Shown here in pieces: positions 11,084 to 50,384 of a DNA stretch of 57,723 nucleotides. Origin of the DNA: an uncultured Candidatus Saccharibacteria bacterium (GTDB lineage: Bacteria; Patescibacteriota; Minisyncoccia; 2-02-FULL-40-12; GWA2-44-9); NCBI GenBank assembly GCA_964444955.1, contig CAYUJB010000003.1:1-57723 (forward strand), read 5' to 3'. The notes beneath the pieces were generated by a model that worked only from the letters and a program-made list of their open reading frames with translations, ran no database searches and was not told the origin of the DNA. Position 1 is the first letter of the stretch. Each line of letters opens with the position of its first letter. Both the position numbers and the translations under genes were made by a program.

Positions 11084-11113
11084 CCCTCCCTGCCTGCCGG
11101 CAGGCAGGGAGGG
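11084..11113. repeat. CCTGCCTGCCGGCAGGCAGG palindromic element, copy 1 (30-bp perfect palindrome)
   Basis: ccctccctgcctgcc followed by ggcaggcagggaggg; intergenic. Confidence 0.95.
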
Positions 11114-11302
11114 CTTCGCTGACATGAACCCGGTTGCAGTGTTTTTTCGTAGAGACTCTTACCCTATCATCTCTCATGGGACTTTCGCACTTGGATGAAA
11201 TTCAAGGCGTGGGGATGCGACGAAGAAGCCGTATGTATCATACGGCGCCGAGTCGCAGGGGCCCCAGAACGAAGAAGTTCGCCAAGTGCGAAAGTCCTCC
11301 TA

Positions 11303-12514
11303 CTATTTCATTTTGCGGCGGATGAAGGCGGGAATATCGAGATCAAAATCGTCGGAGATGGAAGGGTCAGTGATGGTCTCGCGGACTGACTGCTGCGGTG
11401 CTGCGGGCGTGGGAAGCGGTTGCGGTGGTGTGTAGGTCTGCTGATCAGGCGAGCGCTGTGGTTGCGATTGGCGCACCTCGCCACCAAAGAATCCGATGTC
11501 GGCAGCCGATGGACGCGCTTGGTTGGTGAGTGTTGGACGGCTGGGCTGAAATCCACCCGAGAAACCTGTGGCAATGACCGTGACTTTGAGCTCGCCCTTT
11601 TTGAGTTCGCCCACTTCATCGTAGCCCATGCCGAAGATGATATTGGCATCGCGATCCACGTGTTGCGTGATAATGCTGGCAGCTTCGGCAACTTCGGCCA
11701 TGGAAAGATCTTCGCCACCGCGAAGGTTGAGCAGCACCCCCTTGGCACCTTCGATGGATACATCAAGCAGCGGCGAGTTGATGGCGAGCTTGGCTGCTTC
11801 GACAGCGCGGTCATCACCTGACGCGACACCAATACCCATGAGTGCGGAGCCAGAATTGGCCATAACCTTTTTTACATCATTGAAATCTGCATTGATGATG
11901 TCGTGTCGTGTGATGAGGTCTGACACGCCTTGCACACCCTGACGAAGCACGTCGTCGACGATCTGGAATGCTTCACGTGCGGGTGTCTTGCGATCGATGA
12001 TGCTCAGGATGCGATCGTTGGGAATGACAATAATAGAATCGACTTTCTCGCGCAGGATCGTGAGACCCTCTTCGGCGATGCGCATGCGAGCATTGCCCTC
12101 GAACATAAATGGCTTGGTCACCACCGCCACCGTGAGCGCGCCCATCTCGCGCGCGATGTCAGCAATCACCGGCGCTGCACCTGTGCCCGTGCCGCCGCCC
12201 AAACCGCAGGCAACGAACACCATATCGGCACCACGCAGCGCAGCTTGGATTTCTTCTTTGGTGTCCACGGCGGCCTGACGACCGATTTCCGGATTCATGC
12301 CAGCACCCAGTCCACGCGTGAGGGATTTACCGATGTGCACCTTCACCGATGCAGGGCTGTTGTGCAGTGCCTGCGCATCGGTGTTGACCGCGATAAACTC
12401 CACGCCATGAATGCGCGACTCGATCATGCGCGTGAGTGCGTTGCATCCGGAACCGCCAACGCCAACTACCTTGAGACGGGCGAATGTTTCAAATTGTGGC
12501 TTTACTTGGGGCAT
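11303..12514 (-). CDS. ftsZ: Cell division GTPase FtsZ
   Basis: [17 protein letters not shown] tubulin signature, INADFND and C-terminal DIPAFIRRK. Confidence 0.99.
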
Positions 12515-12604
12515 CGATAATATGAGATTTACGACTAGAACCTTACAAGACTCTACTGGGGTCTACCATAATCGAAAAGGGGGCGCAAACTGCGCTCCCT
12601 CCCC

Positions 12605-12625
12605 TGTGTATAACCTTGTGGATAA
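12605..12625 (-). promoter_or_regulatory. Two tandem DnaA boxes in the ftsA-ftsZ spacer
   Basis: TGTGTATAA (12605-12613) and TGTGGATAA (12617-12625) both fit TTATNCACA. Confidence 0.65.
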
Positions 12626-12632
12626 TGCCGGC

Positions 12633-13874
12633 CTACGGCATGAAATTCTTGAGCCAACTGCCGAGCTGTTTGAGCCATCCACTCATGGCTGTAGACTCAG
12701 ACAACCGATTGCCTTCGCTAATCTCACGAACGTATCCCCACGCCACCAGACCAACGCCAACGGAAAATGCGGGGTCCATTGCTGCATCGAACGCCTGTAC
12801 GCCCACCACCTTGCCTGCTTTGACCGGCAGTGCAAGCGTATCACGCACGAGCGTGAGAAATCCGTTCAGCTTGGAGCCACCCCCAGACACGACAATACCG
12901 GCAGGCAGTAGTCCCTCTTTGCCAGCTTTGCGCAGCTCTTCTTGCACCATATCGAGTAGCTCACGCGCACGAGCATCAACTGCTTCCATGAGCTCGCGAC
13001 GTTGTACCTGATACGGCTCGTCCATGTAGGAGGTGAGATCCACCAGCTCAGGCTTCTTGCGACGATCCCAGCGTTCGTTGACCACACCCAAGTCGATCTT
13101 GATACGCTCAGCAACATCGAGCGATGTCTTGAGGAGTATCGCCAGGTCATTGGTGATATGTCGTGAACCCACGCGCATGATAGCGCTGTGTACCATGTCG
13201 GCCTGATCCCAGACCGTCAGCGACGCGGTGCCGCCGCCGAAATCCAGATGCGCCACACCAAATTCTTTTTGGTGCTTATCGAGTACCGCCATCGAAGCGG
13301 CCAGTGGCGCAAATACAAATCCCGCGACCTCAACACCACACTCGTTGACGCACTTGGCCATGTTTTTGAGGTGGCGCGCCTGGCCGTGAACAATGAGGAC
13401 ATCGGCTTCCAGACGTACCCCCTTCATCCCCAATGGATCACGAACGCGCTCACTGCCGTCAATGACAAAATCGCGCGGGATGACATGAATGATTTCCCGA
13501 TTCGGAGGAAGCGAGACCACCTGGGCAGTGGTAATGACGCGATCGATATCGCTGGCGGTGATTTCACCATCGGCACGGGCTATTGCGATGGTGCCCTTGG
13601 ATACCTGCGTGGCGATGTGCAAACCACTCACCGAGAGATACGCGCGACGCACGGGAACGCCTGCCATCGCAGCTGCCTGCTGGAGTGCCAAGCGCAAGCT
13701 ATCCGTCGCTTCTTTCATGTCGACGATCTCGCCAGCGCGAAGTGCGGACGTGGATGGAACTGAACCAACGCCAATGATATCTGCCTGCTGTGAGCCCGGC
13801 TCTACTTTTGCGACGACAACCTTAATACTGGTATTACCGGTGTCGATGCCGCAAATGATATAGGGATTGCTCAC
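12633..13874 (-). CDS. ftsA: Cell division protein FtsA
   Basis: GIDTGNTSIK, LDFGGGT, GSRHITND and GIVVSGGGS actin-fold motifs; directly upstream of ftsZ. Confidence 0.97.
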   Translation of the reverse strand: MSNPYIICGIDTGNTSIKVVVAKVEPGSQQADIIGVGSVPSTSALRAGEIVDMKEATDSLRLALQQAAAMAGVPVRRAYLSVSGLHIATQVSKGTIAIARADGEITASDIDRVITTAQVVSLPPNREIIHVIPRDFVIDGSERVRDPLGMKGVRLEADVLIVHGQARHLKNMAKCVNECGVEVAGFVFAPLAASMAVLDKHQKEFGVAHLDFGGGTASLTVWDQADMVHSAIMRVGSRHITNDLAILLKTSLDVAERIKIDLGVVNERWDRRKKPELVDLTSYMDEPYQVQRRELMEAVDARARELLDMVQEELRKAGKEGLLPAGIVVSGGGSKLNGFLTLVRDTLALPVKAGKVVGVQAFDAAMDPAFSVGVGLVAWGYVREISEGNRLSESTAMSGWLKQLGSWLKNFMP

Positions 13875-14320
13875 GTGACAAGTCGTTTGAGAATTTTTTG
13901 TTCGGTTGCCTGCATCTTCTTTTCATCAGCCGCGCCCGTCTCATGATCATAGCCCGCCAAGTGCAACAGGCCATGCACCACCGTCCACTGCATTTGATTG
14001 CGCAGTGAAAGGCCGGATTCTTTGGCGTGTACGCGGACGATATCGGCGCAGATAAAAAGGTCACCAAGCAATACCGCAGTATAGCCCGTTATTGGCTGCA
14101 TGTGGAGTGGAAAAGAAAGCACGTCGGTGGGTCTGTCGATCTTCCGTCGCGTGCGATTGAGGGTGCGCATTGCGGCGCGACCAATCAGGGTGACGCCAAC
14201 TTCTGCGGTATGCCCTCGCGGCACCTTCAGAAACGGTGCCGCAGCTTCGCAGACACGCTCAAGGAACGCCCGTCCAAACGTACGTTCTTTGGTGCGATTG
14301 TGAAGCACCACATCAATCAT
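13871..14320 (-). CDS. ybeY: rRNA maturation endoribonuclease YbeY
   Basis: PTDVLSFP and HGLLHLAGYDH motifs. Confidence 0.96.
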   Translation of the reverse strand: MIDVVLHNRTKERTFGRAFLERVCEAAAPFLKVPRGHTAEVGVTLIGRAAMRTLNRTRRKIDRPTDVLSFPLHMQPITGYTAVLLGDLFICADIVRVHAKESGLSLRNQMQWTVVHGLLHLAGYDHETGAADEKKMQATEQKILKRLVT

Positions 14321-14322
14321 AG

Positions 14323-14841
14323 CTATGCGCCTGCCTGACCGGTAGGCAGGCTTAGAGCTTCTTTTACGAGTTCGCTCACACGACCACCATCAAACTTGCC
14401 TTTTGTTTTTGGCGCGACTGCACCCATCACGCGGCCCATGTCTTTGGCGCCAGCGGCACCCGTAGAAGCAATCGCCTCGGCGATGAGCGCTTTGACGACG
14501 TCTTCCGTGAGCTGCTCGGGCATGTACTTCATGAGGATTTCGGCTTCAGCTTTTTCACTCGTCGCCAGCTCAGGTCGAGCAGCGGCTTCGTACTGCTGCG
14601 CGGCATCGCGGCGCTTCTTGATTTCACTAGAGATTGCTTCGATGGTTTCTTCATCGCTCAAGAGTGATTGCGTCGCTACTTCAGCTTCCGCGGTCGCTCC
14701 TGCCTTCATGAGCTTGGCACGCTTTTCGAGCTCGCGGTTCTGAATGACCGAAAGCAGCATCGTGAGCGTACCACGCGTGACCGTATCCCCCGCCTTGAAG
14801 GCGGTTTTCATATCTTCTTTGATAGTATCTTTGAGTGACAT
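14323..14841 (-). CDS. GatB/YqeY domain protein
   Basis: MKTAFKAGD, EIKKRRDA, KYMPEQL, KDMGRVMG. The C-terminal LPTGQAG is encoded by a palindromic element. Confidence 0.93.
   Translation of the reverse strand: MSLKDTIKEDMKTAFKAGDTVTRGTLTMLLSVIQNRELEKRAKLMKAGATAEAEVATQSLLSDEETIEAISSEIKKRRDAAQQYEAAARPELATSEKAEAEILMKYMPEQLTEDVVKALIAEAIASTGAAGAKDMGRVMGAVAPKTKGKFDGGRVSELVKEALSLPTGQAGA
14330..14350. repeat. Palindromic element, copy 2 (21-bp variant, in frame in the yqeY 3' end)
   Basis: cctgcctgaccggtaggcagg. Confidence 0.88.
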
Positions 14842-14853
14842 CGGGAAAAGTTA

Positions 14854-15120
14854 TTACAGATCTATTTCCTGCTTGAGACGACGCTTTGCTTCGTCGAAGT
14901 TCTCTTCGGAATACTTACCCAGCTTTTCGAGGTTGAGACGGAGCTTGCGCAGGTGCATGCCCATGATTGCGCGATTCTTTTCCATGCGCTCAGTTACTTT
15001 CTTAGGACGATGCTTGAGGCTCTTGCGGCGAATGAGTACACCAGACTGTTGTACAAAACGCGAAAAGCGGCGCAGCATACTGCCCGTTGATTCGTTCGGT
15101 TTTCGTTTGACTTCTACCAT
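14854..15120 (-). CDS. rpsU: 30S ribosomal protein S21-like
   Basis: VEVKRKPNESTGSMLRRFSRFVQQSG; adjacent to yqeY as in the rpsU-yqeY arrangement. Confidence 0.8.
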   Translation of the reverse strand: MVEVKRKPNESTGSMLRRFSRFVQQSGVLIRRKSLKHRPKKVTERMEKNRAIMGMHLRKLRLNLEKLGKYSEENFDEAKRRLKQEIDL

Positions 15121-15205
15121 TGTGGTGACCTCCTTTCCATATATCTAGGCCCGTAGGGCGCTAGGGGGTCGTTCCCCGAGGGACCGACCGCTCAGCGTCG
15201 TACAC

Positions 15206-16510
15206 TTACTTTGCCTTCAATCGCTTCTTCAATTCGTCGATGATTTTCTCCAACGGAATGGTCTCTTGGATGCCCGTATCCATCTCGCGCAAGATCACGG
15301 TACCCTCGAGCGCTTCTTTCTGTCCGAAGATGAGTGCGAAGCGGACATCATAGCGCGCTGCCATGCGTAGCTGCCCCTTAATAGTATCGCGACTCAAGCT
15401 ATAACGCACCTCGATGCCCGACTTACGGATTTCCTCAAACAGCATGAGCGAGCGCTTCTTGGCGGCTTCACCCAACTGCGAGAGAAAGACCTTTGGCTTG
15501 GGACCTGCTTCGGGAACTTGCGCGTTGCGCCCCTTCAGACGCGTAACAATGCTGTCGACATCGAGATACCAGCCAGCAGATGGTGTCTTGGGACCGCCCA
15601 AGAGATCGGCGAGTTTATCCATGCGGGAGCCAGCAATGATCGTCAGGCCATCGAGCGCAACTTGTGTCTCCGATGCAGGCACCGAATCAAGCACAAACTG
15701 CCAAACGGTATGCGATGCAAAATCATGATCCGCTACCAACGTGTGATCGATGATGTATGGCACCTTGCCCTCATCGAGGAACTCCAGAAGACTCTTGAAG
15801 TGCGCGCGGGCCTCTTCGGACAAGAAGTCCACGGACTGTGGCGCCTCACGAGCAAGCTCGAGATTCTCAGTCGCAAGGAGGGTAAGACCACGGAAGGGAT
15901 GCTCCTTGGATTCATTGAACGCCGCGGCGCTCATCTTCTTTTGATTGTTTTTGAAAAAATCGCGAAGCGCGCGCAGGTAGGCCGGACGACCCGTGGCGTC
16001 TCCGATGGTGTTGATACGCACCGTGAAAGCACCCATGTTCAGCGCCTCGATGACGCGACACCCCAAAAAGAGAAGCTCGGCATCGACAGCACTGGAATCA
16101 TCACCGATGGTCTGCACGGCAAGCTGCCAGTGCATGCGGTGACCACGCTCAACGGGTTCGAGTACGGGTGCGTTAGTGAACATCTTCACCGGGTGCGGAA
16201 GTGCATGCATACCATGCTGGAGATAGGCGCGCATCAGCGATGGGGCGTTCGATGCGCGAAGCGCAAGCGCCATCCCGTGACTCTTGCCGACGACGAGACG
16301 CCGAATGAGGTCTGGGTCGCTTGCGGCGACCGGACGCGTGAAGGTCTCCACCTGCTCGATAGGCGCTAAATCGATGCGATTGAAACTGTAGTCGGCGAGG
16401 AGGCTATTGGCTTTGCGCCAGATGAAGTGCCAGTACTTCTGATCCTCTGGCGGTATGTCAAAGTAACCCGCGGGCAGTGTTGGAACCGATGATTTTGATT
16501 TTGCAGCCAT
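15206..16510 (-). CDS. Histidyl-tRNA synthetase paralogue with degenerate active site
   Basis: HisRS architecture with anticodon-binding domain (FALIFGQKE), but LRPEGT is LRASNA, motif 2 FRxE..RQF is lost, RGLDYY is ADHDFA and GGRYD is GSRMD. Confidence 0.85.
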   Translation of the reverse strand: MAAKSKSSVPTLPAGYFDIPPEDQKYWHFIWRKANSLLADYSFNRIDLAPIEQVETFTRPVAASDPDLIRRLVVGKSHGMALALRASNAPSLMRAYLQHGMHALPHPVKMFTNAPVLEPVERGHRMHWQLAVQTIGDDSSAVDAELLFLGCRVIEALNMGAFTVRINTIGDATGRPAYLRALRDFFKNNQKKMSAAAFNESKEHPFRGLTLLATENLELAREAPQSVDFLSEEARAHFKSLLEFLDEGKVPYIIDHTLVADHDFASHTVWQFVLDSVPASETQVALDGLTIIAGSRMDKLADLLGGPKTPSAGWYLDVDSIVTRLKGRNAQVPEAGPKPKVFLSQLGEAAKKRSLMLFEEIRKSGIEVRYSLSRDTIKGQLRMAARYDVRFALIFGQKEALEGTVILREMDTGIQETIPLEKIIDELKKRLKAK

Positions 16511-16536
16511 GTGATAAAAATACCCTCTCGAGCCCC

Positions 16537-17229
16537 CTACTCGATAACGGGTGGATACTCAGTGCGAGATAAGAAACCGACATCGTTGAAGGGAAAGAGT
16601 CGCAACCACGCCATGCCAGCGAAGAAGGATTTGTTGACGGGTCCAAAGAACCGACTATCGCTCGAGTGCTCGCGGTTGTCGCCCATCACGAAATACTCGT
16701 TATCACCCAGGGTGACTTTGACGCCGCAATACGATGGGCTGGTGTTGGACGCACACAGCGTGGGGTTCGTATCGGGCAGATACCCTTTCTCAAAAACCGT
16801 GAAGCCCTTGGGATAGCGGGTGTTGAAAATCTGCACCGTGTTGTTCACTCCCGCTAGCACCGTCTCGCCAGGCAACCCGAGAATACGCTTGATGAAGTAC
16901 TCTTTGGGATCGTTGGGGTAGTGGAATATGATCACATCGCCGCGCTGTGGCAACCCGATGCGATACGTCCACTTATCGACGAGAATGTACTCCTTGTCGT
17001 GATAGTTGGGAACCATCGAGCTCCCACTAACAAAGAACGGCTGAATCACGAAGTAGCGAACTGGGAGAATAATCACCAGCGATACCAGCACAACACGGAT
17101 CGTCTCCCATAGGAATGCAAAGAGCTCGCTCATAACACCTCCTGCGGGCGCATCCACGTGTGGTGGCGGCGTTACGGGCGCTGGTGATGGCTCAAGAAAT
17201 GTTGGCTGTGAATGCTTTGGTTCCTCCAT
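16537..17229 (-). CDS. lepB: Signal peptidase I (start revised to MEEPK)
   Basis: GSSMVPN catalytic Ser, FIKRILG catalytic Lys, GDNREHSSDSR. Extended -10 TGTGGTACTAT near 17259-17269. Confidence 0.95.
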   Translation of the reverse strand: MEEPKHSQPTFLEPSPAPVTPPPHVDAPAGGVMSELFAFLWETIRVVLVSLVIILPVRYFVIQPFFVSGSSMVPNYHDKEYILVDKWTYRIGLPQRGDVIIFHYPNDPKEYFIKRILGLPGETVLAGVNNTVQIFNTRYPKGFTVFEKGYLPDTNPTLCASNTSPSYCGVKVTLGDNEYFVMGDNREHSSDSRFFGPVNKSFFAGMAWLRLFPFNDVGFLSRTEYPPVIE

Positions 17230-17436
17230 AATCACTAGGAAATATGCTCGTGACGCTTGATAGTACCACAGTTTTTTGGCCGATTCAAGTGCCCTGTCTG
17301 GAGGGGCCTCGCCACTGGCTCGCGCCCTTCCAGCGTCACTCACACGCTCGAAGACTCACTATTCGCTCCTGCCTCCTCCGGCCCTCCTCATGCACCGGCC
17401 TACGGCCTCTCGCTCAAGATAAGGATCGCTCGGACC

Positions 17437-17456
17437 CCTGCCTACCGGCAGGCAGG
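17437..17456. repeat. Palindromic element, copy 3
   Basis: cctgcctaccggcaggcagg in the lepB-aminopeptidase intergenic region. Confidence 0.9.
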
Positions 17457-17578
17457 TCGTCGGGGCGGCGGGAGTTTTATTAATCTCTACAAGACTTGAC
17501 CATTTGGCAATATTCTGGTATTTTACGGCGTCGTTCTTCGACAATTCAATCAACCAATAATCCCTCAAGGAGGGTTCC

Positions 17579-20137
17579 GTGACCGAAAACCTCAGCTGTC
17601 TTCTGCCCGACACCGTCGGGTTTACGCACTATGACGTCGAGTTGGAGCCAGATTTCACTAGCTTTACTTTCAAGGGTGCAGTACGCATCACCTGCGACGT
17701 TCGTCGCCGCACTCACGCCATCATCCTCAACAGCGCTGACCTGGCTATCGAGCCCGCGGGGGTCTCCATCTGCTACGAGAATGACCACGGCAACGACGTC
17801 GTGCACTGGGCAGCCTCGGTTCGGTTCGACCTGCAACAGGAATTCGTAACGTTCGAGTTCGAACGAGAGATTCCCGTTGGCATCGCGACACTCGATATTC
17901 ATTACACCGGCATCCTCAACGATAAGATGGCCGGCTTCTACCGCAGTAAGTACACCGGCACCGATGGCACCGAAAAGCTTCTGGCGGTGACGCAGTTTGA
18001 AGCCACCGACGCTCGCCGCGCACTGCCATGTGGTGACGAGCCATCGCTGAAAGCTACCTTCACCTCGGCGCTCATTGTGCCCGAAGGTATGACGGCGCTT
18101 TCCAACACACCTCAGCATTGGGATACGCCTCTGCCCGGCGGCAAACGCCGCGTGCAGTTTGGTGTGACCCCCAAGATGTCGACGTACCTGTTGGCATTTG
18201 TGGTGGGCGATCTGGAGTTCATCGAGGCGGAGACAAAATCGGGAGTGACCGTTCGCGTCTACACGGTGCCCGGAAAGTCTGAATTCGGCCGCTTCGCGCT
18301 CGAGACGGGTTGCAGGGCTCTGGAGTTCTACGATGAGTACTTCGGAATTCCCTATCCCCTTCGCAAGCTCGACATGGTTGCCATCCCCGACTTCGCTGCC
18401 GGCGCCATGGAGAACTGGGGACTCATCACGTATCGGGAAAACGCGCTCCTCATCGATCCCGCCAATTCGTCGACGCAGGCATACGAACGCGTCGCTGATG
18501 TGGTGTGTCACGAGATTGCGCACCAGTGGTTCGGCAACCTCGTCACCATGCGGTGGTGGACCCACCTGTGGCTCAACGAGGGCTTTGCGACCTGGATGTC
18601 CGCTCGCGCTCGCGATACGCTCTTCCCCACCTGGGAAGTGTGGCCGCAGTTTCTCCTCGAGGAGTACCAAGCGGCATTGATCTTGGATTCGCTGCGATCA
18701 AGTCATCCGATCGAAGTACCGGTACAGCATCCTGACGATATCAGTCAGACATTCGATGACATCGCCTACGCAAAGGGTGCCAGCATCATCCGCATGATTC
18801 ACCAGGCACTCGGCGATGCAACATTCCGCAAAGGTCTCAAACTCTACCTCACGCGCCATGCATACGGCAACGCGGTCACCGAAGACTTATGGGCTGCCTT
18901 GTCGGAAGTGTCGGGTCAACCCGTCGAAGCACTGATGGGAAGTTGGACAAAGCAGACGGGATATCCGCTCGTTACGATTGACTACGACACTGTCGATGAA
19001 GAGAACACTGAGTTGCACTCGCAAGAGAGATTCTTGGCGAGTGGCGCAGAGCTCACGCCGGAAGAATCGCAGCAAACGTGGCACCTCCCGACGACATTCT
19101 TCAATCGAGATGGGCTGACGTACAAACACAACCGTGGCCAACAGGTGCCAGCCCGCGTCACGTATCCCATGGAGCAATGGCGACACCTGCCAATCGACAT
19201 GGAGGATGGTTTGCTCGAGCCGATCGATCGGTACGGGCTCATCAGCGATGCGCTCGCGCTCGCACAGGCGGGACCCTTGCCAACGGCAACACTCGTGGAG
19301 TTGTTGGCCAGCTGCAGGCGAGAAGACAGCTACATCGTGTGGCTCACCATCCTCGATGCGCTCAACGCTCTCGGGAGTATCCTGGAAGGCACCCCCGATC
19401 ATGCGCGGCTCAACGCATTCGCTCAAAATCTTCTCACGCCTATCGTTGAAAAGCTCGGGTGGGAGAAACGTCCGGACGACACCCACACTACGCCACTGTT
19501 GCGAGGCATTGTCCTCAACGCATCTGGCGCGTATGGGAATGCTGTAGTCCGTCAAGAATCGCTGCGATTGCTGCGAGACAATACGGCTGGCATCACCGTA
19601 ATACATCCCGATATTCGCTTGGCGGTGTACAAAAACGCCGCACGAGTGAATTTGACCCTCAGCTACAATCTCCTCCGACAGGGATTCGAATCTGCGGGAC
19701 TCCAAGAAGAGCAGGTTCGATTCTTGCACGCGATGGGACTGGTGCGTGACCCCTCACTCCTCAATCATGTTGTCGAGTATGGGTTTGATTCGGGAAAGGT
19801 GCGGAACAGTAACTTCATCTACCTCGTGTCATCCCTGGGATCTCACGCAGCTGGGCGAAAGGCCCTGTGGTCACTGATCAGCACACGATGGGATGACGTG
19901 CAGCAGCGATTCTCCGGCGGTGGTCTCAAGATGCTTTCTCGTGTCCTGGGATCCGCGCTGGATGGATTCACTGCGAACGCCGACGCGGATCTCTTTGAGC
20001 AGTTCTTCAAAGATCACCCCGCTCCCAGCGCAAGTCGAACGATCGCACAGGCGCTCGAAGCCATCCGCACCCGTGCCGCATGGTACGAACGCGACGGAGC
20101 AGCCATAAGCGGACTCCTCGCGCAGTACACAGAGTAA
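17579..20137 (+). CDS. pepN: M1 family aminopeptidase with ERAP1-like C-terminal domain
   Basis: GAMENWG, HEIAHQWFGNLVTM...WLNEGFA and YAKGA motifs. Confidence 0.95.
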   Translation: MTENLSCLLPDTVGFTHYDVELEPDFTSFTFKGAVRITCDVRRRTHAIILNSADLAIEPAGVSICYENDHGNDVVHWAASVRFDLQQEFVTFEFEREIPVGIATLDIHYTGILNDKMAGFYRSKYTGTDGTEKLLAVTQFEATDARRALPCGDEPSLKATFTSALIVPEGMTALSNTPQHWDTPLPGGKRRVQFGVTPKMSTYLLAFVVGDLEFIEAETKSGVTVRVYTVPGKSEFGRFALETGCRALEFYDEYFGIPYPLRKLDMVAIPDFAAGAMENWGLITYRENALLIDPANSSTQAYERVADVVCHEIAHQWFGNLVTMRWWTHLWLNEGFATWMSARARDTLFPTWEVWPQFLLEEYQAALILDSLRSSHPIEVPVQHPDDISQTFDDIAYAKGASIIRMIHQALGDATFRKGLKLYLTRHAYGNAVTEDLWAALSEVSGQPVEALMGSWTKQTGYPLVTIDYDTVDEENTELHSQERFLASGAELTPEESQQTWHLPTTFFNRDGLTYKHNRGQQVPARVTYPMEQWRHLPIDMEDGLLEPIDRYGLISDALALAQAGPLPTATLVELLASCRREDSYIVWLTILDALNALGSILEGTPDHARLNAFAQNLLTPIVEKLGWEKRPDDTHTTPLLRGIVLNASGAYGNAVVRQESLRLLRDNTAGITVIHPDIRLAVYKNAARVNLTLSYNLLRQGFESAGLQEEQVRFLHAMGLVRDPSLLNHVVEYGFDSGKVRNSNFIYLVSSLGSHAAGRKALWSLISTRWDDVQQRFSGGGLKMLSRVLGSALDGFTANADADLFEQFFKDHPAPSASRTIAQALEAIRTRAAWYERDGAAISGLLAQYTE

Positions 20138-20219
20138 GTCGTACCGCCGCCAGAACACTCTGGCGGCTTTTTTGTACGGCATTGCCGCTCGAGCAATTCT
20201 GAGCTACAGTAGATTTGCT

Positions 20220-20789: not shown

Positions 20790-20798
20790 GATTGCTCC

Positions 20799-22130: not shown

Positions 22131-22139
22131 TATTGCTCC

Positions 22140-24380: not shown

Positions 24381-24417
24381 AAAAATCGACCCCGGTACAT
24401 TGGGGTCGATTGACGAC

Positions 24418-25776: not shown

Positions 25777-25876
25777 AAAGGGAGCTAACTATCTAGTTGG
25801 AAACGAACCTTGGGCGTGTGCCCACGTACTATCTTATTATAGCAAAAAACAGAGCTAAAGTCAATAGCTTGCAGAA

Positions 25877-25941: not shown

Positions 25942-25956
25942 CTTGGCCCTTTCGTT

Positions 25957-36812: not shown

Positions 36813-36850
36813 CTAGAATCTCTTGGTTTCCCTGTGGTATACTTAGGGGT

Positions 36851-38975: not shown

Positions 38976-38991
38976 CTACAAACGGGGGGAT

Positions 38992-43869: not shown

Positions 43870-44003
43870 TATGGTGCGGTGTGTGGACAATTCGTTTGGC
43901 AATCCCTGGTATACTTAATGAAATCAAGGTCGATAGCTGGGACGCTCCATGCATGGCGCCTCAGTGCACAATGTATTGAAATTTCAACAAACATAAATTA
44001 CCT

Positions 44004-44471
44004 ATGCCCGTAAAAAAAGAAAAAGGACAGAAGGGGTTCACCCTTATCGAAATCCTGGTAGTTATCGGTATCATCGCGATCTTGGCGGCAGTCGTCATCG
44101 TTGCCTTGAATCCGGCTCGTCAGTTCGCGCAAGCTCGCAACACGCAGCGCTGGAGTAACGTCAACACGATTCTCAACGCAGTCGGCCAACGCATGGCAGA
44201 CAACCGTGGAATCTGGAGCTCCACCTGTGGTGCATCTACGGTTGCGCTTCCAGGTGCAGCAGGCAACTGGATTGGTACCGGTGGAACACTCACCGACCTC
44301 GAGGCGTGCATTGTTCCGACCTATGTCTCATCGATGGTGGTTGATCCTTCCACTGATGCAGTCGCATCAGCAGGATACACTGGCTACCGCATTAGCCGAG
44401 CAACGACAGGCCGCATCACCGTCAGCGCACCGCTGGGTGAGCTCGACGAAGTCATCTCGGTTACTCGCTAG
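44004..44471 (+). CDS. Type IV pilin (probable major pilin)
   Basis: KG-FTLIEILVVIGIIAILAAVVIVALNP. Own extended -10 (TG-G-TATACT, 43907-43915) and a downstream terminator. Confidence 0.92.
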   Translation: MPVKKEKGQKGFTLIEILVVIGIIAILAAVVIVALNPARQFAQARNTQRWSNVNTILNAVGQRMADNRGIWSSTCGASTVALPGAAGNWIGTGGTLTDLEACIVPTYVSSMVVDPSTDAVASAGYTGYRISRATTGRITVSAPLGELDEVISVTR

Positions 44472-44544
44472 TTTTTCCCCAGGAGGAATACACAAAGCGC
44501 CCCGACGGGGCGCTTTGTGGTCGTGGTATACTTGGAGATATTCT

Positions 44545-46146
44545 ATGAAGTATTCATTCTTCATTATTCTCGCATCTCTGTGCGCTGCGACAACTGCGCA
44601 GGCGATACTGTTTTCAGAATTCAACCCTGACTACGCACAGGCCATACAGCTTGAAGCTGGAGATACCGTTGATGAGTTTCTTATTCCGCGCAACGACTAC
44701 TTTGGCGGCATCGATTTTTGGGTGAGCAACAACGGAACAGCAGTCACCGCAGTATTCTCACTCAACGATTTTTCTGGAACCACCATCGAGTCGCGTGCCG
44801 TCAGCATTCCCGCTCTTGCCGATTCTGATACCGGCACCCGCTACCACATCGATTTGGCAACACAGATTGCGACACCAGCTGCAACGACCTACAAGATCAC
44901 CCTCCGCCCCAACGGCTATCTGCGTGTATACGCAGCCGATGCGGTGCCACTTTTGACTCACAACGCGACGGTGCCAGCCACATCTACGAATGGAATCGCT
45001 GCTATAAATAACGAGCTACAACTTATTAGTCTCACGCACGCCTTGTACGAAGATCAAGAATCGACGCCACCTCGCATTCGGAGCCATGAAGTTCAGCAGC
45101 CCGCGCCGGCGACTGCCGTAATTGTTTTTGAGACCAATGAGCCCGTGGATCGCCGACTTACCCTTTCCAGTACTCTTGCCGCTGACTGGAGCGGTACATA
45201 TTCATTTTGTGAAACGGGCATCAATACGTGTAGCATCTCGTTAAGCGTAGTCCCCGGCACGACATATACGTACACTCTCAATGTCCGCGATGCGTGGGGA
45301 AATCTCGCCGAAACAACTGGAACCTTCACGGCGATCGGTGGTGACCAGTCCCCAACCACAACCGCCACCCCTACTACGTCCACAATGCCAACGGCATCGC
45401 CCAGCGCAACGCCCACGGCGACCCCACCTCCCGACATCACAGGTCCCACAATTATTAACGCTCGTGTCGTCTCGTTGACGCCACACTCTGCGACGTTCGC
45501 GTGGACGACCAATGAAGCGGCCAACAGCTCAGTCGTTGTTCAGCTACTACCGTACTTCATCAATGCCGGTGCAAATAACGACAGCACATTTGAGCTCGAA
45601 CACCTCGTGTATGTAGACGGACTCACGTCCGACACCCCTTTGCGCGCCACCATCACCTCCTACGACGGGTCGGGTAACTCATCAAAGACAACTATCAATT
45701 TTCTCACTCCCGTAGAGACACCGACTCCCGCAACAACTACTCCGCCCAGCTCCTCCCCAACTCCTGTAGCAACGCCGCACGTACAAGGCGATGGCGACAC
45801 CCAAACACTGCTCCTTCCGCCATCATCAGACGGGTCTGCTGCTTCCAGTTTTCGCGTTGATATCTTTGACTCCTCAAACAGACTCATTAAAACAATCCTC
45901 GTGCCCGCGGGACAAAAAGAAATTGCTCTCAAGGAGCTTGCCCGCAGCGGCAATCGTATTATCGTGTACGAACAAACCGATGGCGTATTCCAAAAAGTAG
46001 CAGCGTCATCGAATCCTCAGAAATCGGCGCCTCGTACACCGCTCATTCTAGGGACACTCTTACTCCTCCTCGGCGGAGCCGTGTATTTCCTGTGGCAACA
46101 GCGTCGCCGCCGCATGACTACCTTACACCCGGACGGATCACAATAA
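44545..46146 (+). CDS. Surface protein: signal peptide, FN3-like domains, Thr/Pro linkers, C-terminal TM plus RRRR (start revised)
   Basis: MKYSFFIILASLCAATTAQA signal peptide; FAWTTNEAANS...DGSGN FN3-like pattern. Confidence 0.75.
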   Translation: MKYSFFIILASLCAATTAQAILFSEFNPDYAQAIQLEAGDTVDEFLIPRNDYFGGIDFWVSNNGTAVTAVFSLNDFSGTTIESRAVSIPALADSDTGTRYHIDLATQIATPAATTYKITLRPNGYLRVYAADAVPLLTHNATVPATSTNGIAAINNELQLISLTHALYEDQESTPPRIRSHEVQQPAPATAVIVFETNEPVDRRLTLSSTLAADWSGTYSFCETGINTCSISLSVVPGTTYTYTLNVRDAWGNLAETTGTFTAIGGDQSPTTTATPTTSTMPTASPSATPTATPPPDITGPTIINARVVSLTPHSATFAWTTNEAANSSVVVQLLPYFINAGANNDSTFELEHLVYVDGLTSDTPLRATITSYDGSGNSSKTTINFLTPVETPTPATTTPPSSSPTPVATPHVQGDGDTQTLLLPPSSDGSAASSFRVDIFDSSNRLIKTILVPAGQKEIALKELARSGNRIIVYEQTDGVFQKVAASSNPQKSAPRTPLILGTLLLLLGGAVYFLWQQRRRRMTTLHPDGSQ

Positions 46147-46663
46147 ATCTATTTTTGAATGCGCGGAGAAATCCCGAGAGCTGCAGGGCGCGTAATCCTT
46201 CGTGTGCAGTCCGCTCTTCAGGGTCACAGAACGAAACAACACCATCGGTAATTCCCGTCACGACAACGATGTGCCCCCCACCACGCTGTGGATCAAGGCC
46301 GGCGTAGACACTGGCGAGCACAGGACCACGATCGAGCTCCGTAGCAAGGAGTGCCCACGCTTCTTCGACGGTCTTGGGTGCTGCACTTTTTGGTCCGAAA
46401 TCAGCATTATAGCCTGTGTATCCAAAATCTTGCGCTAGCCGTACGAGACCTGCATGCGTCCAACCCACACCCTCGAGATATGCACCAAGCGCTGTACCAC
46501 GCTCCAGGAGTGTATCCAGAGCGGGGAGTTGATTGTAAGCGTCATGAGCATGCTCATACGCCATTACCATGTGCAACGACGCGATGCCACACCCACGCGC
46601 GCGCCAGTCGTGGTGCCCTATATCGGTGTACTGCGAAGAGAATGGAACGTCGTAGGATGACAT
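46118..46663 (-). CDS. Peptidase C39-like protein
   Basis: VPFSSQ...GCGIASL, GHIVVV and CDP catalytic triad pattern. Confidence 0.85.
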   Translation of the reverse strand: MSSYDVPFSSQYTDIGHHDWRARGCGIASLHMVMAYEHAHDAYNQLPALDTLLERGTALGAYLEGVGWTHAGLVRLAQDFGYTGYNADFGPKSAAPKTVEEAWALLATELDRGPVLASVYAGLDPQRGGGHIVVVTGITDGVVSFCDPEERTAHEGLRALQLSGFLRAFKNRFIVIRPGVR

Positions 46664-46679
46664 ACAAAGGGAAACTAGG

Positions 46680-46752
46680 TGGACCCTAGCAGGTTCGAAC
46701 TGCTGACCTCCTCATTGCAAATGAGGCGCTCTACCAGCTGAGCTAAGGGCCC
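46680..46752 (-). tRNA. tRNA-Ala(TGC)
   Basis: GGGCCCT/AGGGTCC acceptor with the G3:U70 pair; anticodon arm CCTCA-TTTGCAA-TGAGG. Confidence 0.97.
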
Positions 46753-46818
46753 GGGGAATCAATCTACGACCTCTGTCTTATAGGCACACGCGAGGAGTGC
46801 CGCGGGCATGCGACTAAG

Positions 46819-46890
46819 TGGGCGACGTAGGAATCGAACCTACGACCTCTGTCTTATCAGGACAGCGTTCTACCACTGAACTAGTCGCCC
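46819..46890 (-). tRNA. tRNA-Ile(GAT)
   Basis: GGGCGAC/GTCGCCC acceptor; anticodon arm CTGTC-CTGATAA-GACAG; GGTTCGATTCC T loop. Confidence 0.97.
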
Positions 46891-46943
46891 ATGGAGCATA
46901 CCCGTGGCATCCGAGCAAAGTGCCTAAATTTTGAATTTGCAGA

Positions 46944-46994
46944 ACAGCGCCTGCCTACCGGCAGGCAGGTTCTACCACTGAACTAGTCGCCCAT
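46944..46994 (-). pseudogene. Copy of the tRNA-Ile 5' half interrupted by palindromic element copy 4 (46950-46969)
   Basis: acagcg[cctgcctaccggcaggcagg]ttctaccactgaactagtcgcccat equals 46862-46892 once the 20-bp insert is removed. Confidence 0.85.
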
Positions 46995-47108
46995 TGCCTG
47001 GAAACGAACGACTCATAGTACCAGCATTTTACCCACCTGGCAATAAGCAGGAAACATACGAAAAGTATTGCCAAAATTGACCTGATATGCTATGATTTAC
47101 CAACTACT

Positions 47109-47663
47109 ATGACCGACACGAAGACACTCACTTCGGTCAATAATGCCCTCAAGGAGAAGTTCAAGGGCAGAAAGCTCGTCTTTGGACAGGGCGCTGTTGG
47201 CGCGAAGGTGGTTGTCGTAAGTGAGATGCTTGGAGTACACGGAGAAAAAGATGGCGCACCCGTCGGGGGCCCTCACCTTAAGCTCCTCAACAAACTACTG
47301 CGTGACGCTGGTATTGATCGCAAGAAGGTGTATGTCACCAACGTGGTAAAGTACCGCCCGGACGAAGATAAGCCGCCAACGCCGAAAGAAATCAAGAGTC
47401 ATGCTACATTCCTGAAAGAGGAGATTCGAACCGTAAATCCAGAAATCGTCGTGACGCTTGGGAGTCTCGCCCTCAATGGCGTAGGACTTCGCATCCCCGT
47501 CGAAAATGTACATGGACGCACCTTCCCTTTGGGAGGTTATCGCCTGCTGCCCACTTTTCATCCCGAGCGAGCCCTGCGCGACCCAAGCGCGAAGACGCTC
47601 CTGGAAGCGGACTTCGCAAAACTCAAAGAGCTCTTCAAGCTCCCTAAACTGGAAGCAAACTAA
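47109..47663 (+). CDS. Uracil-DNA glycosylase family 4-like protein
   Basis: VYVTNVVKYRP, EIRTVNPEIVVTLG and TFHP. Motif A is atypical (SEMLG). Confidence 0.85.
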   Translation: MTDTKTLTSVNNALKEKFKGRKLVFGQGAVGAKVVVVSEMLGVHGEKDGAPVGGPHLKLLNKLLRDAGIDRKKVYVTNVVKYRPDEDKPPTPKEIKSHATFLKEEIRTVNPEIVVTLGSLALNGVGLRIPVENVHGRTFPLGGYRLLPTFHPERALRDPSAKTLLEADFAKLKELFKLPKLEAN

Positions 47664-47685
47664 CGCCTCTCCTCACGGAGGGGTT

Positions 47686-48687
47686 TTAGTTTGCCTTCTT
47701 TCTGCGCAACACGCGTGTCGTTGCGGCAACAATGTTCACTGCGTTGAGTCCAAATTTTTCCATAAGCTCCGCCGGTGTCCCAGATTCTCCAAAACGATCG
47801 TGCACGCCGATGAATTCCATAGGTACCGGGCATTCTTGCGCGAGCAATTCTGCGACTGCCGAACCCATACCGCCTGCCATCTGATGTTCTTCAGCCGTTA
47901 CGACCGCTCCGCATTGCTTCGCCGCTTTCAAAAGCGTTTCCGTATCCAGTGGCTTAATGGTGTGATTATTAATCACCGTTGCCTGAATCCCCTTGGCCTC
48001 CAAAAGCACCGCGGCTCGAAGCGCCTCGTATACCATGGTGCCGCAGGCAATAATGACTACATCCTTGCCATCGCGCAGCACGTTCGCTATGCCAACGGCA
48101 AACGGAGTTTCGGGTACGGTGATTACGGGGGATTTTTCTCGGCTCAGGCGCAGGTACGATGGCTGATCATTGCCAGCAAGTTCGAGTGTCGCCTTCTGCG
48201 CCTCGATGGCATCACAGGGCACCACGACCACCATGCGGGGGAGTACGCGCATCAGTGCAATATCTTCGAGCGCCTGGTGCGTTGCGCCGTCAGGCCCTAC
48301 ACTCACACCCGCATGAGCGCCTATGATCTTGACCGGCATATTGTTCAGACAGATGTTGGTCCTGATCTGCTCATTATTCCGACCAGGACTAAAGGTAGCG
48401 TAGCTTGCGATGAACGGAATCTTGCCAGCCGCCGCCATACCCGATGCAATAACAGCAAGATTTTGCTCAGCAATCCCCACCTGAAAAAAGCGATGAGGAA
48501 ACTTCTCAGCGAACCAGTGACTCCGCGTACTCTCGGTCAGATCCGCGCACAGTACGACGACGCGTTCATCCGCCACACCGGCGAGCACCACCCCATGACC
48601 GTACCCATCGCGAATGGGCACCTGCTCCAGTTTTGCTGGATGCGCAACATCCGCTAAAGGTATCAACGGCGTATGCTTTTTCTTCAT
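47686..48687 (-). CDS. Transketolase, C-terminal (pyrimidine-binding) subunit
   Basis: ADLTEST, VGIAEQN, GPDGATHQ and AEEHQ. Confidence 0.95.
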   Translation of the reverse strand: MKKKHTPLIPLADVAHPAKLEQVPIRDGYGHGVVLAGVADERVVVLCADLTESTRSHWFAEKFPHRFFQVGIAEQNLAVIASGMAAAGKIPFIASYATFSPGRNNEQIRTNICLNNMPVKIIGAHAGVSVGPDGATHQALEDIALMRVLPRMVVVVPCDAIEAQKATLELAGNDQPSYLRLSREKSPVITVPETPFAVGIANVLRDGKDVVIIACGTMVYEALRAAVLLEAKGIQATVINNHTIKPLDTETLLKAAKQCGAVVTAEEHQMAGGMGSAVAELLAQECPVPMEFIGVHDRFGESGTPAELMEKFGLNAVNIVAATTRVLRRKKAN

Positions 48688-48689
48688 GG

Positions 48690-49064
48690 TTAACGGGGAC
48701 TGCAGGCACCACAGATATTAGAAACGACTGAGGCCTCAGCGTGGGCATCCAGTAGGGCACGGCACACTGAGCGCTGTCCGGGATTTTGGCACGCATCATC
48801 ACCTAGCGGGCTTGCATATGATCCACTAAAATCGATGCGAAATAGACCCGGAGCAGTCGGTAGTCCATTGGTGATCGTCGCGTAGAGCTCTTTTTTGTCA
48901 GGTCGCGCGAGCGAGCTCTTCTCGATTGTCGTCATAATAAATGCCATACGCTTCTGGGCGGCTGATTGGATGTCGCTTGCCTGTATATACTGCAGCCCTG
49001 CGAACAGAAAAGCCGCAGCTGCCAGAGCGAACATGATATTGGGGAAGATTTGTCGTTTATCCAT
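48690..49064 (-). CDS. Small membrane-anchored Cys-rich protein A (start revised)
   Basis: N-terminal TM; IDFSGS...C...QRSVC...CGAC. Flush with both neighbours. Confidence 0.7.
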   Translation of the reverse strand: MDKRQIFPNIMFALAAAAFLFAGLQYIQASDIQSAAQKRMAFIMTTIEKSSLARPDKKELYATITNGLPTAPGLFRIDFSGSYASPLGDDACQNPGQRSVCRALLDAHAEASVVSNICGACSPR

Positions 49065-49069
49065 AGGGT

Positions 49070-49498
49070 TTATTGAAAGCACACTACACAAGACTTGATC
49101 GCATCTCCTGGAACGACAGCTCTCAACTGTGCGCATGCTTCTGGACTGGTCGTTCGTTGTGCGCAGGTCATATTGATGCGAGCAACCTCACGAGCGGTCT
49201 GAATGCACGCCGATCGCTGTGCGACCGTGCAGCTCCCCGATGATGTAGGAGCGCCGGCGCTCGAGCTTGAGAAATCCAGAACGGGAGCTGGAGCTCCGAG
49301 AGATGCTGTAGCAGCGTCGAGGAGTGTTGCCTTCGCCGATGATGTGAGCGGAGCCGCACCAACTACACCCATCATGCGGTACGCCTGTTCATAGGCAAAT
49401 TCGCGTGCATTGCCCGCTTCGACGTTTTTGTACACTCCAAAACAGAGGGACAGTATCGCCACCAGCACTGAAAATATCATGGTAATGTCTCGTTTCAT
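49070..49498 (-). CDS. Small membrane-anchored Cys-rich protein B (paralogue of A)
   Basis: N-terminal TM; LDFSSS...C...QRSAC...CVVC. Starts 1 nt after the transketolase-N stop. Confidence 0.72.
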   Translation of the reverse strand: MKRDITMIFSVLVAILSLCFGVYKNVEAGNAREFAYEQAYRMMGVVGAAPLTSSAKATLLDAATASLGAPAPVLDFSSSSAGAPTSSGSCTVAQRSACIQTAREVARINMTCAQRTTSPEACAQLRAVVPGDAIKSCVVCFQ

Positions 49499-49499
49499 A

Positions 49500-50384
49500 T
49501 TATTGATGTTCGCTTTCTATTTTACCATGAAGTGTGCGAAGTTCATGCAAGAATGTCTTTGCCTCGTCGGGTTTGGGGGGAATGCCATGCCATTTGTAAT
49601 CAAATTCTATCTCCTTAATTCCCTTTCCAGGAATCGTATGCACAATGATAACCGTCGGCTTCTCATAGATCGCCTTGGCTTCCTGCACCGCATCGACGAA
49701 TGCCTCGATATTGTGGCCATCTACTTCCAGCACATGCCAATTAAACGCCTGCCACTTTGCACGCAGTGACTCCAGCGGCATCACGTCTTCGGTCATGCCA
49801 TCAATCTGAATGTTGTTACGATCCACGATCACGGTGAGGTTGGAGAGGCGATACTTGCCCGCCAGCATTACTGACTCCCAGACGATGCCCTCATCGAGCT
49901 CTCCGTCTCCCATGGTGCAATAGGTGCGCCACGGTTGCGCCGCCTGCCTGCCGGCAGGCAGGTCCATACGCGCCACCAACGCCATACCGATAGCTTGGCC
50001 GAGTCCGGAGCCCAGAGGTCCCGAGGTCGTCTCGAGTCCCGGCAGGCGCTCGCGCTCGGGATGCCCCTGCAGACGTGTGCCCAGCTTGCGAAGAGACAGG
50101 AGCTCGGAGATGGGGAAGTACCCCGCATGCGCCATCGCTGCGTATCGTACGGGTGCGATATGCCCATTGGATTGCACAAACCTGTCGCGATCGGGCATGT
50201 CGGGATTCTTCGGGTCATGATGGAGCACGTGAAAATACATCGCTGTAAACACATCGGCCATACCCAACGGCCCTGCCGTGTGTCCCGAACCTGCGGCCAC
50301 GAGCATCTCAACGATACTCTGGCGTATCTCGTTTGCCTTGAGTTCGAGCTCGACTACTTTTGCTTCGGAAATATATTCAGACAT
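49500..50384 (-). CDS. Transketolase, N-terminal (TPP-binding) subunit
   Basis: GSGHTAG, LQGHP, GDGELDEG...DRN and WHG. Carries an LPAGRQ insert from the palindromic element. Confidence 0.95.
   Translation of the reverse strand: MSEYISEAKVVELELKANEIRQSIVEMLVAAGSGHTAGPLGMADVFTAMYFHVLHHDPKNPDMPDRDRFVQSNGHIAPVRYAAMAHAGYFPISELLSLRKLGTRLQGHPERERLPGLETTSGPLGSGLGQAIGMALVARMDLPAGRQAAQPWRTYCTMGDGELDEGIVWESVMLAGKYRLSNLTVIVDRNNIQIDGMTEDVMPLESLRAKWQAFNWHVLEVDGHNIEAFVDAVQEAKAIYEKPTVIIVHTIPGKGIKEIEFDYKWHGIPPKPDEAKTFLHELRTLHGKIESEHQ
49943..49962. repeat. Palindromic element, copy 5 (inside the transketolase CDS)
   Basis: cctgcctgccggcaggcagg, read as D-L-P-A-G-R-Q-A on the minus strand. Confidence 0.92.

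Follow-up and report, generated by a model that had tools for sequence, protein, structure and literature searches.

We analysed a DNA stretch of 57,723 nucleotides from an uncultured Candidatus Saccharibacteria bacterium (contig CAYUJB010000003.1 of assembly GCA_964444955.1; the whole stretch is called the window in the following) with respect to a 20-bp palindrome, CCTGCCTRCCGGYAGGCAGG, here abbreviated PAL. Comparisons of filled with empty sites showed that PAL enters DNA as an exact 20-bp unit, without target duplication or detectable target sequence. PAL is a real and apparently undescribed insertion element that is found across phyla, and a search with the 20-mer, its sub-strings and the encoded peptide LPAGRQ revealed no paper containing them in the searchable literature. 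With moderate confidence in the explanation as a whole we regard PAL as a very small non-autonomous mobile DNA, that is a hairpin repeat without spacer and without tag, which is also part of nuclease-linked cassettes in tRNA genes.

The window is contig C3 of the genome G000 (696 kb in 22 contigs, 96% complete, 53% G+C). An earlier note on this DNA had described the palindrome at five sites of the window, and this was correct: four sites are exact matches, whereas the fifth, at 14330, is a 21-bp variant with one extra A (CCTGCCTGACCGGTAGGCAGG), which was missed by a window search allowing up to 3 substitutions. None of 100 dinucleotide-preserving shuffles of the window yielded a match, and no copy is expected there by chance. 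Using a half-site scan of the whole genome we detected about 34 copies in G000; 21 of these match the degenerate 20-mer exactly and the remainder differ by 1 to 3 changes. Some copies have common flanks, as is the case for C1:82224 and C5:37945 and for 17437 and C1:55700, the latter pair located inside a short repeat in which PAL is degenerate at C1:55700. From these shared flanks we estimate that the number of independent insertion events in G000 is nearer to 22-25. As single-stranded DNA (ssDNA) PAL folds in the computation into an 8-bp stem with a 4-nt CCGG loop (-8 kcal/mol), and it contains no stop codon in any frame. The centre has the sequence RCCGGY, with the one-sided change of GCCGGC to GCCGGT in 36% of the copies and the double change ACCGGT in 1%; a speculative source of the one-sided change would be an outer cytosine that is methylated and then deaminated. 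A flank profile of 147 copies (21 from G000 and 126 from other genomes) revealed no consensus outside of the 20-mer and neither a GTAG nor a CGTC tag at its end. The sole bias was a depletion of T at position -1 (7%).

The precision of the insertion was evident from 11 comparisons of a filled site with an uninterrupted copy or an orthologue, all of which showed a 20-bp insert and no target duplication; terminal inverted repeats combined with a target-site duplication, the hallmark of miniature inverted-repeat transposable elements, were found in none of the 11. Five tRNA fragments of G000 are split by exactly 20 bp, and after removal of PAL in silico their flanks rejoined to tRNA without a gap, with 100% identity across the junction or 97% in the case of tRNA-Thr. 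Site 2 of a modular repeat family (catga^ccggagcac) is occupied by PAL at C1:73611 and C11:16926, contains a degenerate PAL in one further copy and is empty in at least five. The lack of both a target consensus and a target-site duplication would also fit an origin without any dedicated enzyme, in which host processes such as the capture of a self-annealed 20-mer duplex or hairpin oligonucleotide at breaks or gaps, gene conversion among repeats or DNA uptake distribute the sequence; cells of this kind naturally scavenge foreign DNA. We consider this a possible, though not a likely, explanation.

For the copy at 46950 the earlier note had claimed a clean 20-bp insertion without target duplication, and the split between tRNA positions 23 and 24 is indeed exact. 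PAL reads CCTGCCTGCCGGTAGGCAGG on the tRNA-sense strand at this site, and its flanks correspond, after removal of PAL, to positions 1-29 of tRNA-Ile with 100% identity and without a gap. What the note had not recognized is that this copy is part of a tRNA-targeting cassette. The order behind a promoter-like region in G000 is tRNA 1-23, PAL, tRNA 24-29, 50 unrelated nucleotides and a fresh 5' part with the remaining tRNA. The 50-nt cargo together with the fresh copy of tRNA-Ile positions -2 to 29 represents an 81-nt insertion after position 29, and the PAL insert is separate from it. In four relatives (G001, G004, G005 and G010) the site is empty and the promoter-like region runs directly into tRNA-Ile. 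The coordinates of this locus and of the other features are compiled in the table.

Table. PAL copies and associated features in the window, in other contigs of G000 (C numbers) and in other genomes or viral contigs (L numbers).
Feature	Position	Strand	Remarks
Partial member of the modular repeat family	11060..11300	+	family of about 100-380 bp at 10 or more genome loci, hairpin-rich, intergenic
PAL copy, perfect, GCCGGC centre	11089..11108	no strand	exact; intergenic; core of a 30-bp perfect palindrome, 11084-11113
21-bp PAL variant coding for LPTGQAG near the YqeY C-terminus	14330..14350	-	gene 14323-14841, minus strand
PAL copy, ACCGGC centre on the plus strand	17437..17456	no strand	exact; divergent intergenic region
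Intact tRNA-Ile(GAT)	46818..46890	-	uninterrupted reference for the insert at 46950
50-nt cargo of the ORF-less mini-cassette	46894..46943	-	between displaced fragment and fresh tRNA-Ile 5' copy
Displaced ancestral tRNA-Ile 5' part, positions -2 to 29, interrupted by PAL	46944..46994	-	behind ancestral promoter-like region
PAL copy within the displaced 5' fragment of tRNA-Ile, inserted between positions 23 and 24 of the tRNA	46950..46969	-	exact match
Site of the compensating +1 base, 8-9 nt behind PAL as the gene is read	49933..49934	-	restores the transketolase frame
PAL copy in transketolase N-terminal subunit, read as LPAGRQ	49943..49962	-	exact; gene 49500-50384, minus strand
Split tRNA fragment, tRNA-Ile positions 1-29	window 46950		
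Split tRNA fragment, tRNA-Lys 57-74	C1:999		
Split tRNA fragment, tRNA-Ser(gct) 71-90	C1:87896		
Split tRNA fragment, tRNA-Ser(gga) 69-86	C20:1357		
Split tRNA fragment, tRNA-Thr 40-73	C10:20556		
Other modular-repeat loci in G000	C1:73392-73730, C2:61065-61372, C2:86826-87181, C4:21331-21712		
Other modular-repeat loci in G000, continued	C11:16724-17043, C1:97770-98055, C14:15162-15406, C17:174-431		
PAL cassette with GIY-YIG ORF	L088		WWE3, tRNA-Lys
PAL cassette with GIY-YIG ORF	L061		Bacteroidetes MAG (metagenome-assembled genome)
PAL cassette with GIY-YIG ORF	L129		two PALs
PAL cassette with GIY-YIG ORF	L255		relative G027
PAL-bearing tRNA 5' fragment directly upstream of GIY-YIG ORF	L223		viral contig

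Five of the approximately 34 copies in G000 (about 15%), located at 4 sites, are coding, so that about 85-90% are non-coding; in other phyla the coding fraction is 11 of 127 (9%). According to Pfam the host genes in G000 belong to the families Transketolase_N, YqeY, PseudoU_synth_2 and enolase. Since 20 is not a multiple of 3, a genic PAL survives only with a second indel nearby or with a change of one base inside PAL. Both types of repair were found, a point that is absent from the earlier note. All 21 orthologues of the transketolase subunit are 7 residues shorter at the PAL site. After removal of PAL the corresponding segment comprises 46 nt in G000 and 45 nt in five orthologues, with a single gap at the position of the compensating base. 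The insertion of LPAGRQ into transketolase, as claimed before, is therefore real, but it is not a simple addition, because the 20-bp insert and the additional base together exchange GAK for LPAGRQAAQP. In the pseudouridine synthase at C5:1230 the insert is absent from all 12 orthologues examined, and nine same-genus matches (from eight genomes) are without 7 residues at the PAL site; 8 orthologues of the enolase (C21:1945 and C9:2753, same site) are without 6 residues. Compared with their orthologues the segments without PAL differ by +1 in transketolase, +1 in pseudouridine synthase and -2 in enolase, with the gap at most 10 nt away from the junction in each case, and the net length changes amount to +21, +21 and +18 nt.

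The additional base of YqeY sits within PAL itself. The protein ends with LPTGQAG, followed by A and the stop codon, and the Pfam domain stops at residue 163 of 172, before the tail encoded by PAL; without the 14330 variant the in silico product ends ...EALSA-stop. The addition of LPTGQAG to YqeY, which had been read from the window before, is thus a tail beyond the end of the domain. The 11 clearly coding copies in other phyla are read as LPAGRQ (7), CLPAGR (2) or PACRQA (2). The orientation of the asymmetric variant relative to the coding strand (4 G..T versus 2 A..C) was uninformative.

Because the insertion of PAL shifted the frame and a nearby second indel restored it, PAL entered these genes as DNA. 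The repair at a second site also shows that PAL is translated, as LPAGRQ or CLPAGR, and not removed from the mRNA. The proposal of the earlier note that a minimal palindrome enters spacers, tRNA fragments and genes and is tolerated in proteins is supported by the exact comparisons of empty and filled sites and by the repaired frames. If host processes distributed PAL, the indels within 10 nt of the three coding inserts could be repair scars instead of later compensation. The two enolase genes of the bin (C9:2650-3900 and C21:817-2067) show 92% protein identity and contain PAL at the same codon, with a mutated PAL in C9; this pair may reflect a bin composed of different strains or species, or the gene may have been duplicated recently.

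Most PAL copies persist in dispensable DNA, as could be shown for intergenic repeats and broken tRNA fragments. The modular repeat family, to which the surroundings of the 11089 copy belong, holds 9 of the PAL copies of G000. Its members are 80-100% identical, carry exchangeable inner hairpins (PAL, cccgcc..ggcggg or cggctaa..ttagccg) and are often located just upstream of genes, e.g. those of LeuRS, an ABC-F protein and a methyltransferase. The 30-bp palindrome around the 11089 copy forms a hairpin tip within the repeat, and its flank cttcgctgacatgaacccg is common to the family. PAL stays exact in repeat copies whose flanks share only about 80% identity. At C1:97906-97929 we observed a degenerate PAL in which CCGG is duplicated internally (CTTGCCTGCCGGCCGGCAGGCCGG), and the same repeat site holds an exact PAL in two other copies. 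This suggests that PAL was inserted more than once at this site or, alternatively, that the empty copies lost it precisely. A comparison with Rfam yielded no credible family for the modular repeats and the GIY-YIG cassette described below, and in the window it detected tRNAs and 16S only. Seven PAL copies of G000 are located in or beside tRNA-derived fragments. Two more short fragments of this type were found in the window: 46764-46781 corresponds to tRNA-Ile positions 34-51 and lies between tRNA-Ala and tRNA-Ile, and 1905-1923 corresponds to the 3' end of tRNA-Pro and lies about 150 bp behind that tRNA. Both belong to a set of about 20 short tRNA-derived fragments genome-wide. In the viral contig IMGVR_UViG_3300033148_008720 (L212) a tRNA-Met of 92 nt was called at 2239-2330 with PAL between the anticodon arm and the T-arm; here PAL could mimic a long variable arm instead of destroying the tRNA.

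The distribution of PAL is wide and patchy. It was found in 23 of 41 relatives with 0-29 copies each, and this range is also seen among species of one genus, whereas a reversed control pattern gave no hit; G000 is the richest genome in this comparison, followed by G018. The exact 20-mer is present in more than 120 stretches of representative genomes, with about 2 expected by chance in 596 Gb. The phyla include Patescibacteria, Bacteroidota (also cultured strains), Omnitrophota and Planctomycetota, and further taxa are Nitrospirota, Chloroflexota, Bdellovibrionota and Gammaproteobacteria. The assumption that the element may be widespread in the candidate phyla radiation (CPR) was therefore justified, and its range extends beyond the CPR. 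In addition, 48 viral stretches of IMG/VR contain the exact sequence, one contig with 6 copies. The occurrence of an identical 20-mer in many phyla and in viral contigs indicates that PAL moves horizontally.

Most of the genomes are metagenome bins and some copies are located near contig ends (C7:59, C1:999), which might point to a sequencing or assembly artefact. The chance of this is negligible: cultured isolates carry PAL (Winogradskyella echinorum, Olivibacter oleidegradans and Flagellimonas yonaguniensis), where it appears as a conspicuous foreign GC-rich block in AT-rich Bacteroidota, second-site indels restore reading frames, and the enolase site is common to two diverged gene copies, one of them with a mutated PAL.

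The insertion of hairpins without target-site duplication is typical for Y1 transposases. The earlier note had suggested such an enzyme of the HUH type (RAYT/TnpA-like) or a recombination mechanism. A Y1 enzyme, either a REP-associated tyrosine transposase (RAYT) or a TnpA of the IS200/IS605 family, would move PAL in trans by single-strand excision and insertion like a repetitive extragenic palindromic (REP) element. In line with this, Y1_Tnp was detected in 16 of the 41 relatives, somewhat more often in PAL-positive (12 of 23) than in PAL-negative genomes (4 of 18; p 0.06, rho 0.33), and 5 of 7 genomes with at least 4 PAL copies have a Y1 gene. However, G000 is richest in PAL and yet its 96%-complete genome contains no match to PF01797 (Y1_Tnp) and none to PF07282 (TnpB). 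RAYT genes are typically flanked by their own REPs, but the 12 Y1 loci of the relatives had no PAL-like sequence (up to 4 mismatches) within 1.5 kb, and PAL shows neither a GTAG tag nor a conserved 5' target such as TTAC. For these reasons RAYT/Y1 was rejected as the best explanation, and we regard it as improbable. The Y1_Tnp ORFs of the relatives, a common feature of this order, comprise about 210-270 aa, with 1-4 per genome; they exceed IS200 TnpA in length, have no flanking PAL and were found in G002, G013, G014, G017, G018, G021, G023, G026, G027, G029, G030, G032-G034, G036 and G037.

A different candidate emerged from cassettes in tRNA genes, which consist of a displaced tRNA 5' fragment with a D-loop hairpin, an ORF of 80-100 aa for a mini GIY-YIG nuclease and the restored tRNA. 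In the five loci listed in the table PAL occupies the D-loop of the displaced fragment, and the GIY-YIG ORF follows 7-80 nt downstream. Further cases are G017:C14 with PAL 24 nt upstream of a GIY-YIG match and L154 with a PAL variant 48 nt upstream, and of the eight GIY-YIG matches in PAL loci of other phyla five are no more than about 150 bp away from PAL. The 7 PAL-adjacent nucleases are all members of a single clade out of two with strong support (7 of 33 rows versus 0 of 18), and within the family the number of mini GIY-YIG genes correlates with the number of PAL copies (rho 0.64). Other cassettes contain a different hairpin at the same place of the D-loop, e.g. cccgcccg...cgggcggg in L271 and L090. 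The asymmetric variant occurs as G8..T13, which allows a G.T wobble, on the tRNA-sense strand in all 11 copies linked to tRNAs or cassettes (11:0). This polarity indicates either that the hairpin is read from a single strand, in the form of ssDNA or RNA, or that deamination is strand-biased. The tRNA-Ile locus of the window shares the architecture of the GIY-YIG cassettes except for the ORF.

The closest known system is the partnership of Ssn nucleases with SRM hairpins. Ssn proteins are single-domain GIY-YIG ssDNA nucleases paired with SRM/NTS hairpin repeats in hundreds of copies; the repeat flanks the nuclease gene in 71% of the ssnA homologues, and an IS-like (insertion sequence-like) origin was raised by the authors themselves (Chenal et al. 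2025, PMC11893778). PAL resembles this system as a hairpin repeat of 20-50 nt in many copies, in its linkage to a GIY-YIG-only protein of about 90 aa and in its strand-specific behavior. In contrast to SRM/NTS, which are rarely genic and whose 5' flank (CGTC...) is conserved and not palindromic, PAL is flankless, is found in genes and is identical across phyla. PAL next to a nuclease gene is the exception, and it then lies within a displaced piece of a tRNA; instead of a conserved orienting upstream sequence it shows a polarity only in the G..T variant. Moreover, the nucleases of G000 look closest to UPF0213 by sequence; the clade of the Ssn proteins, to which they may also belong, is cd10448.

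These observations make a hairpin-specific mini GIY-YIG nuclease the best lead for a candidate mobilizer. Small cassettes invading tRNA genes would form a group to which PAL belongs, as one of several alternative D-loop hairpins. Recognition probably concerns the hairpin formed by one of the single strands, in the way in which Ssn nucleases recognize SRM hairpins, and solo copies would be spun off from the cassettes. The only PAL-type cassette in G000, the tRNA-Ile locus, lacks a nuclease gene, so that the burst of about 34 copies may be older than the loss of a cognate nuclease or may depend on one of the four resident mini GIY-YIG genes. The most far-reaching version is that PAL and a subgroup of catalytic-domain-only GIY-YIG nucleases of 80-100 aa form a two-part mobile system living in tRNA genes, in which the nuclease recognizes the 20-nt hairpin on one strand and releases it or primes its copying, and the hairpin is written into ssDNA elsewhere without target requirement. 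We consider this version rather doubtful.

Several findings weigh against a role of these nucleases. G000 contains four GIY-YIG-only genes of 78-99 aa matching PF01541, and three of these directly abut tRNA genes. None of the four has PAL upstream; for the gene at C1:82482 a copy is found downstream at a distance of about 240 bp, where it belongs to a separate element behind tRNA-Ser. The two genomes richest in PAL, G000 and G018, show no adjacency. The link was seen in about 4% of the PAL copies (5 of 127 in other phyla and 2 of 57 in viral contigs), and 2 of 40 sampled cassettes of relatives, G017 among them, carry PAL. These comparisons confirmed the cassette architecture and that it recurs non-randomly, but gave no confirmation that PAL usually resides next to a nuclease gene. 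In the viral contig with 6 copies (IMGVR_UViG_3300037242_000417) a local GIY-YIG profile search detected no mini GIY-YIG gene. PAL and the cassettes both favor tRNA neighborhoods, so that their adjacency is confounded. Over the 41 genomes the counts of PAL and GIY-YIG genes correlate weakly, with a rho of 0.24 (p 0.13), and the presence of Y1 correlates about equally; both correlations are modest and confounded and do not decide between the two enzymes. The polarity could stem from strand-biased deamination at highly transcribed tRNA loci and not from recognition. The nearest solved structures of the mini nucleases of G000 are the UPF0213 proteins 1zg2 and 1ywl, and NCBIfam gave only sub-threshold matches, to a group I intron endonuclease model. 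GIY-YIG enzymes are nucleases, and no member is known to catalyze insertion. A keyword search of the literature for elements combining GIY-YIG, tRNA genes and hairpins yielded organellar papers only.

One complete GIY-YIG cassette of G000 is located at C1:82100-82800. It starts with a tRNA-Ser 5' fragment with a double hairpin, followed by the GIY-YIG ORF of 99 aa, a length that depends on the chosen start codon, a tRNA-Ser whose anticodon, ACT, is unusual, a hairpin resembling a terminator, a PAL-containing element and a tRNA 3'-end repeat. The PAL-containing element starts with GATTCGAACGCCGGA, and the same build and motif were found in the gammaproteobacterial MAG L090.

If host processes alone spread the sequence, the position of PAL beside GIY-YIG cassettes would be a mere common preference for dispensable DNA flanking tRNA genes. 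That most copies are solo, that the richest genomes are without a PAL-adjacent nuclease and that many copies multiplied passively inside larger repeats is in agreement with such an origin. However, it leaves the constant supply of one exact 20-mer across phyla unexplained, the D-loop placement recurs across phyla and in cassettes that occupy different tRNAs, and the 11:0 polarity and the clade restriction of the adjacent nucleases speak against pure coincidence. Alternatively, PAL could be a selected functional site and not selfish DNA, for example a protein binding site, an uptake or restriction-related signal with an RCCGGY core or an RNA hairpin that serves processing or stability. The strict conservation across phyla, also between repeat copies with diverged flanks, the polarity tolerating G.T, which fits a hairpin role in RNA or ssDNA, and the modulation of Neisseria transformation by Ssn/NTS sites (PMC11893778) would be compatible with a function. 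Nevertheless, we consider this very improbable, given the patchy copy number within one genus, the inserts in conserved enzymes that required frame repair, the lack of a consistent position relative to genes and the lack of a T-run for a terminator.

The mobile hairpin repeat that we favor shares single traits with REP/RAYT, with the small dispersed repeats (SDRs) of cyanobacteria and with the Rickettsia palindromic elements (RPEs), but each of these systems fails at least one defining feature. REP and REPIN sequences are short GC-rich palindromes as well, mostly extragenic with occasional translated intragenic copies, and their copy number is likewise patchy between relatives (PMC3116915, PMC3733652). 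The earlier note had set REPs apart as larger or intergenic, which does not hold, because REPs comprise 20-40 bp and intragenic REPs are documented (PMC3733652). The difference is that PAL has no GTAG/CGTC tag and that no RAYT is present in G000 and none is flanked by PAL in relatives. Since PAL is perfectly palindromic, an orientation of the REPIN type cannot be defined.

The SDRs of heterocyst-forming cyanobacteria, reportedly described by Elhai and co-workers (Elhai et al. 2008, Genome Res 18:1484, cited in PMC3116915), resemble PAL as very small repeats, of about 21-27 nt, that are seemingly inserted into other repeats and genes and for which no enzyme is known. SDRs are not known outside of one cyanobacterial group, and neither identity across phyla nor a link to tRNA/GIY-YIG cassettes is known for them. 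RPEs are palindromic selfish DNA translated in frame inside conserved proteins, but they are 100-150 bp long, lineage-specific and enter in frame, whereas PAL with 20 bp shifts the frame and needs repair at a second site. The GC clusters of fungal mitochondria (yeast GC clusters and Neurospora PstI palindromes) are short, GC-rich and dispersed, flank tRNA genes and are occasionally genic; they are lineage-specific and some create target duplications. They are like PAL in size, GC-richness, dispersal and tRNA flanks and unlike PAL in being organellar.

As a 20-bp unit that is inserted precisely, without target site and without an encoded enzyme nearby, PAL marks a lower size limit of mobile DNA. 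That PAL is identical letter for letter in the CPR, in cultured Bacteroidota and in viral contigs implies that it has an efficient vehicle for horizontal transfer and that a conserved protein recognizes it. The coding copies preserve the sequence of events in nature, from the insertion with its frameshift to a second frameshift close by that compensates the first, and few examples have been documented in which essential enzymes gain new surface loops by this route. For annotation it is relevant that PAL splits tRNA fragments, lengthens ORFs and may break assemblies. If the link to GIY-YIG nucleases holds, the partnership of Ssn nucleases with hairpins would extend from genome 'punctuation' to an active parasite of tRNA genes, and a new pair of a sequence-specific ssDNA nuclease and its site would be available as a possible tool. 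If the two-part system proves true, PAL would be the smallest mobile DNA known, carried by phages between phyla and remodeling essential proteins via insertion and subsequent frame repair.

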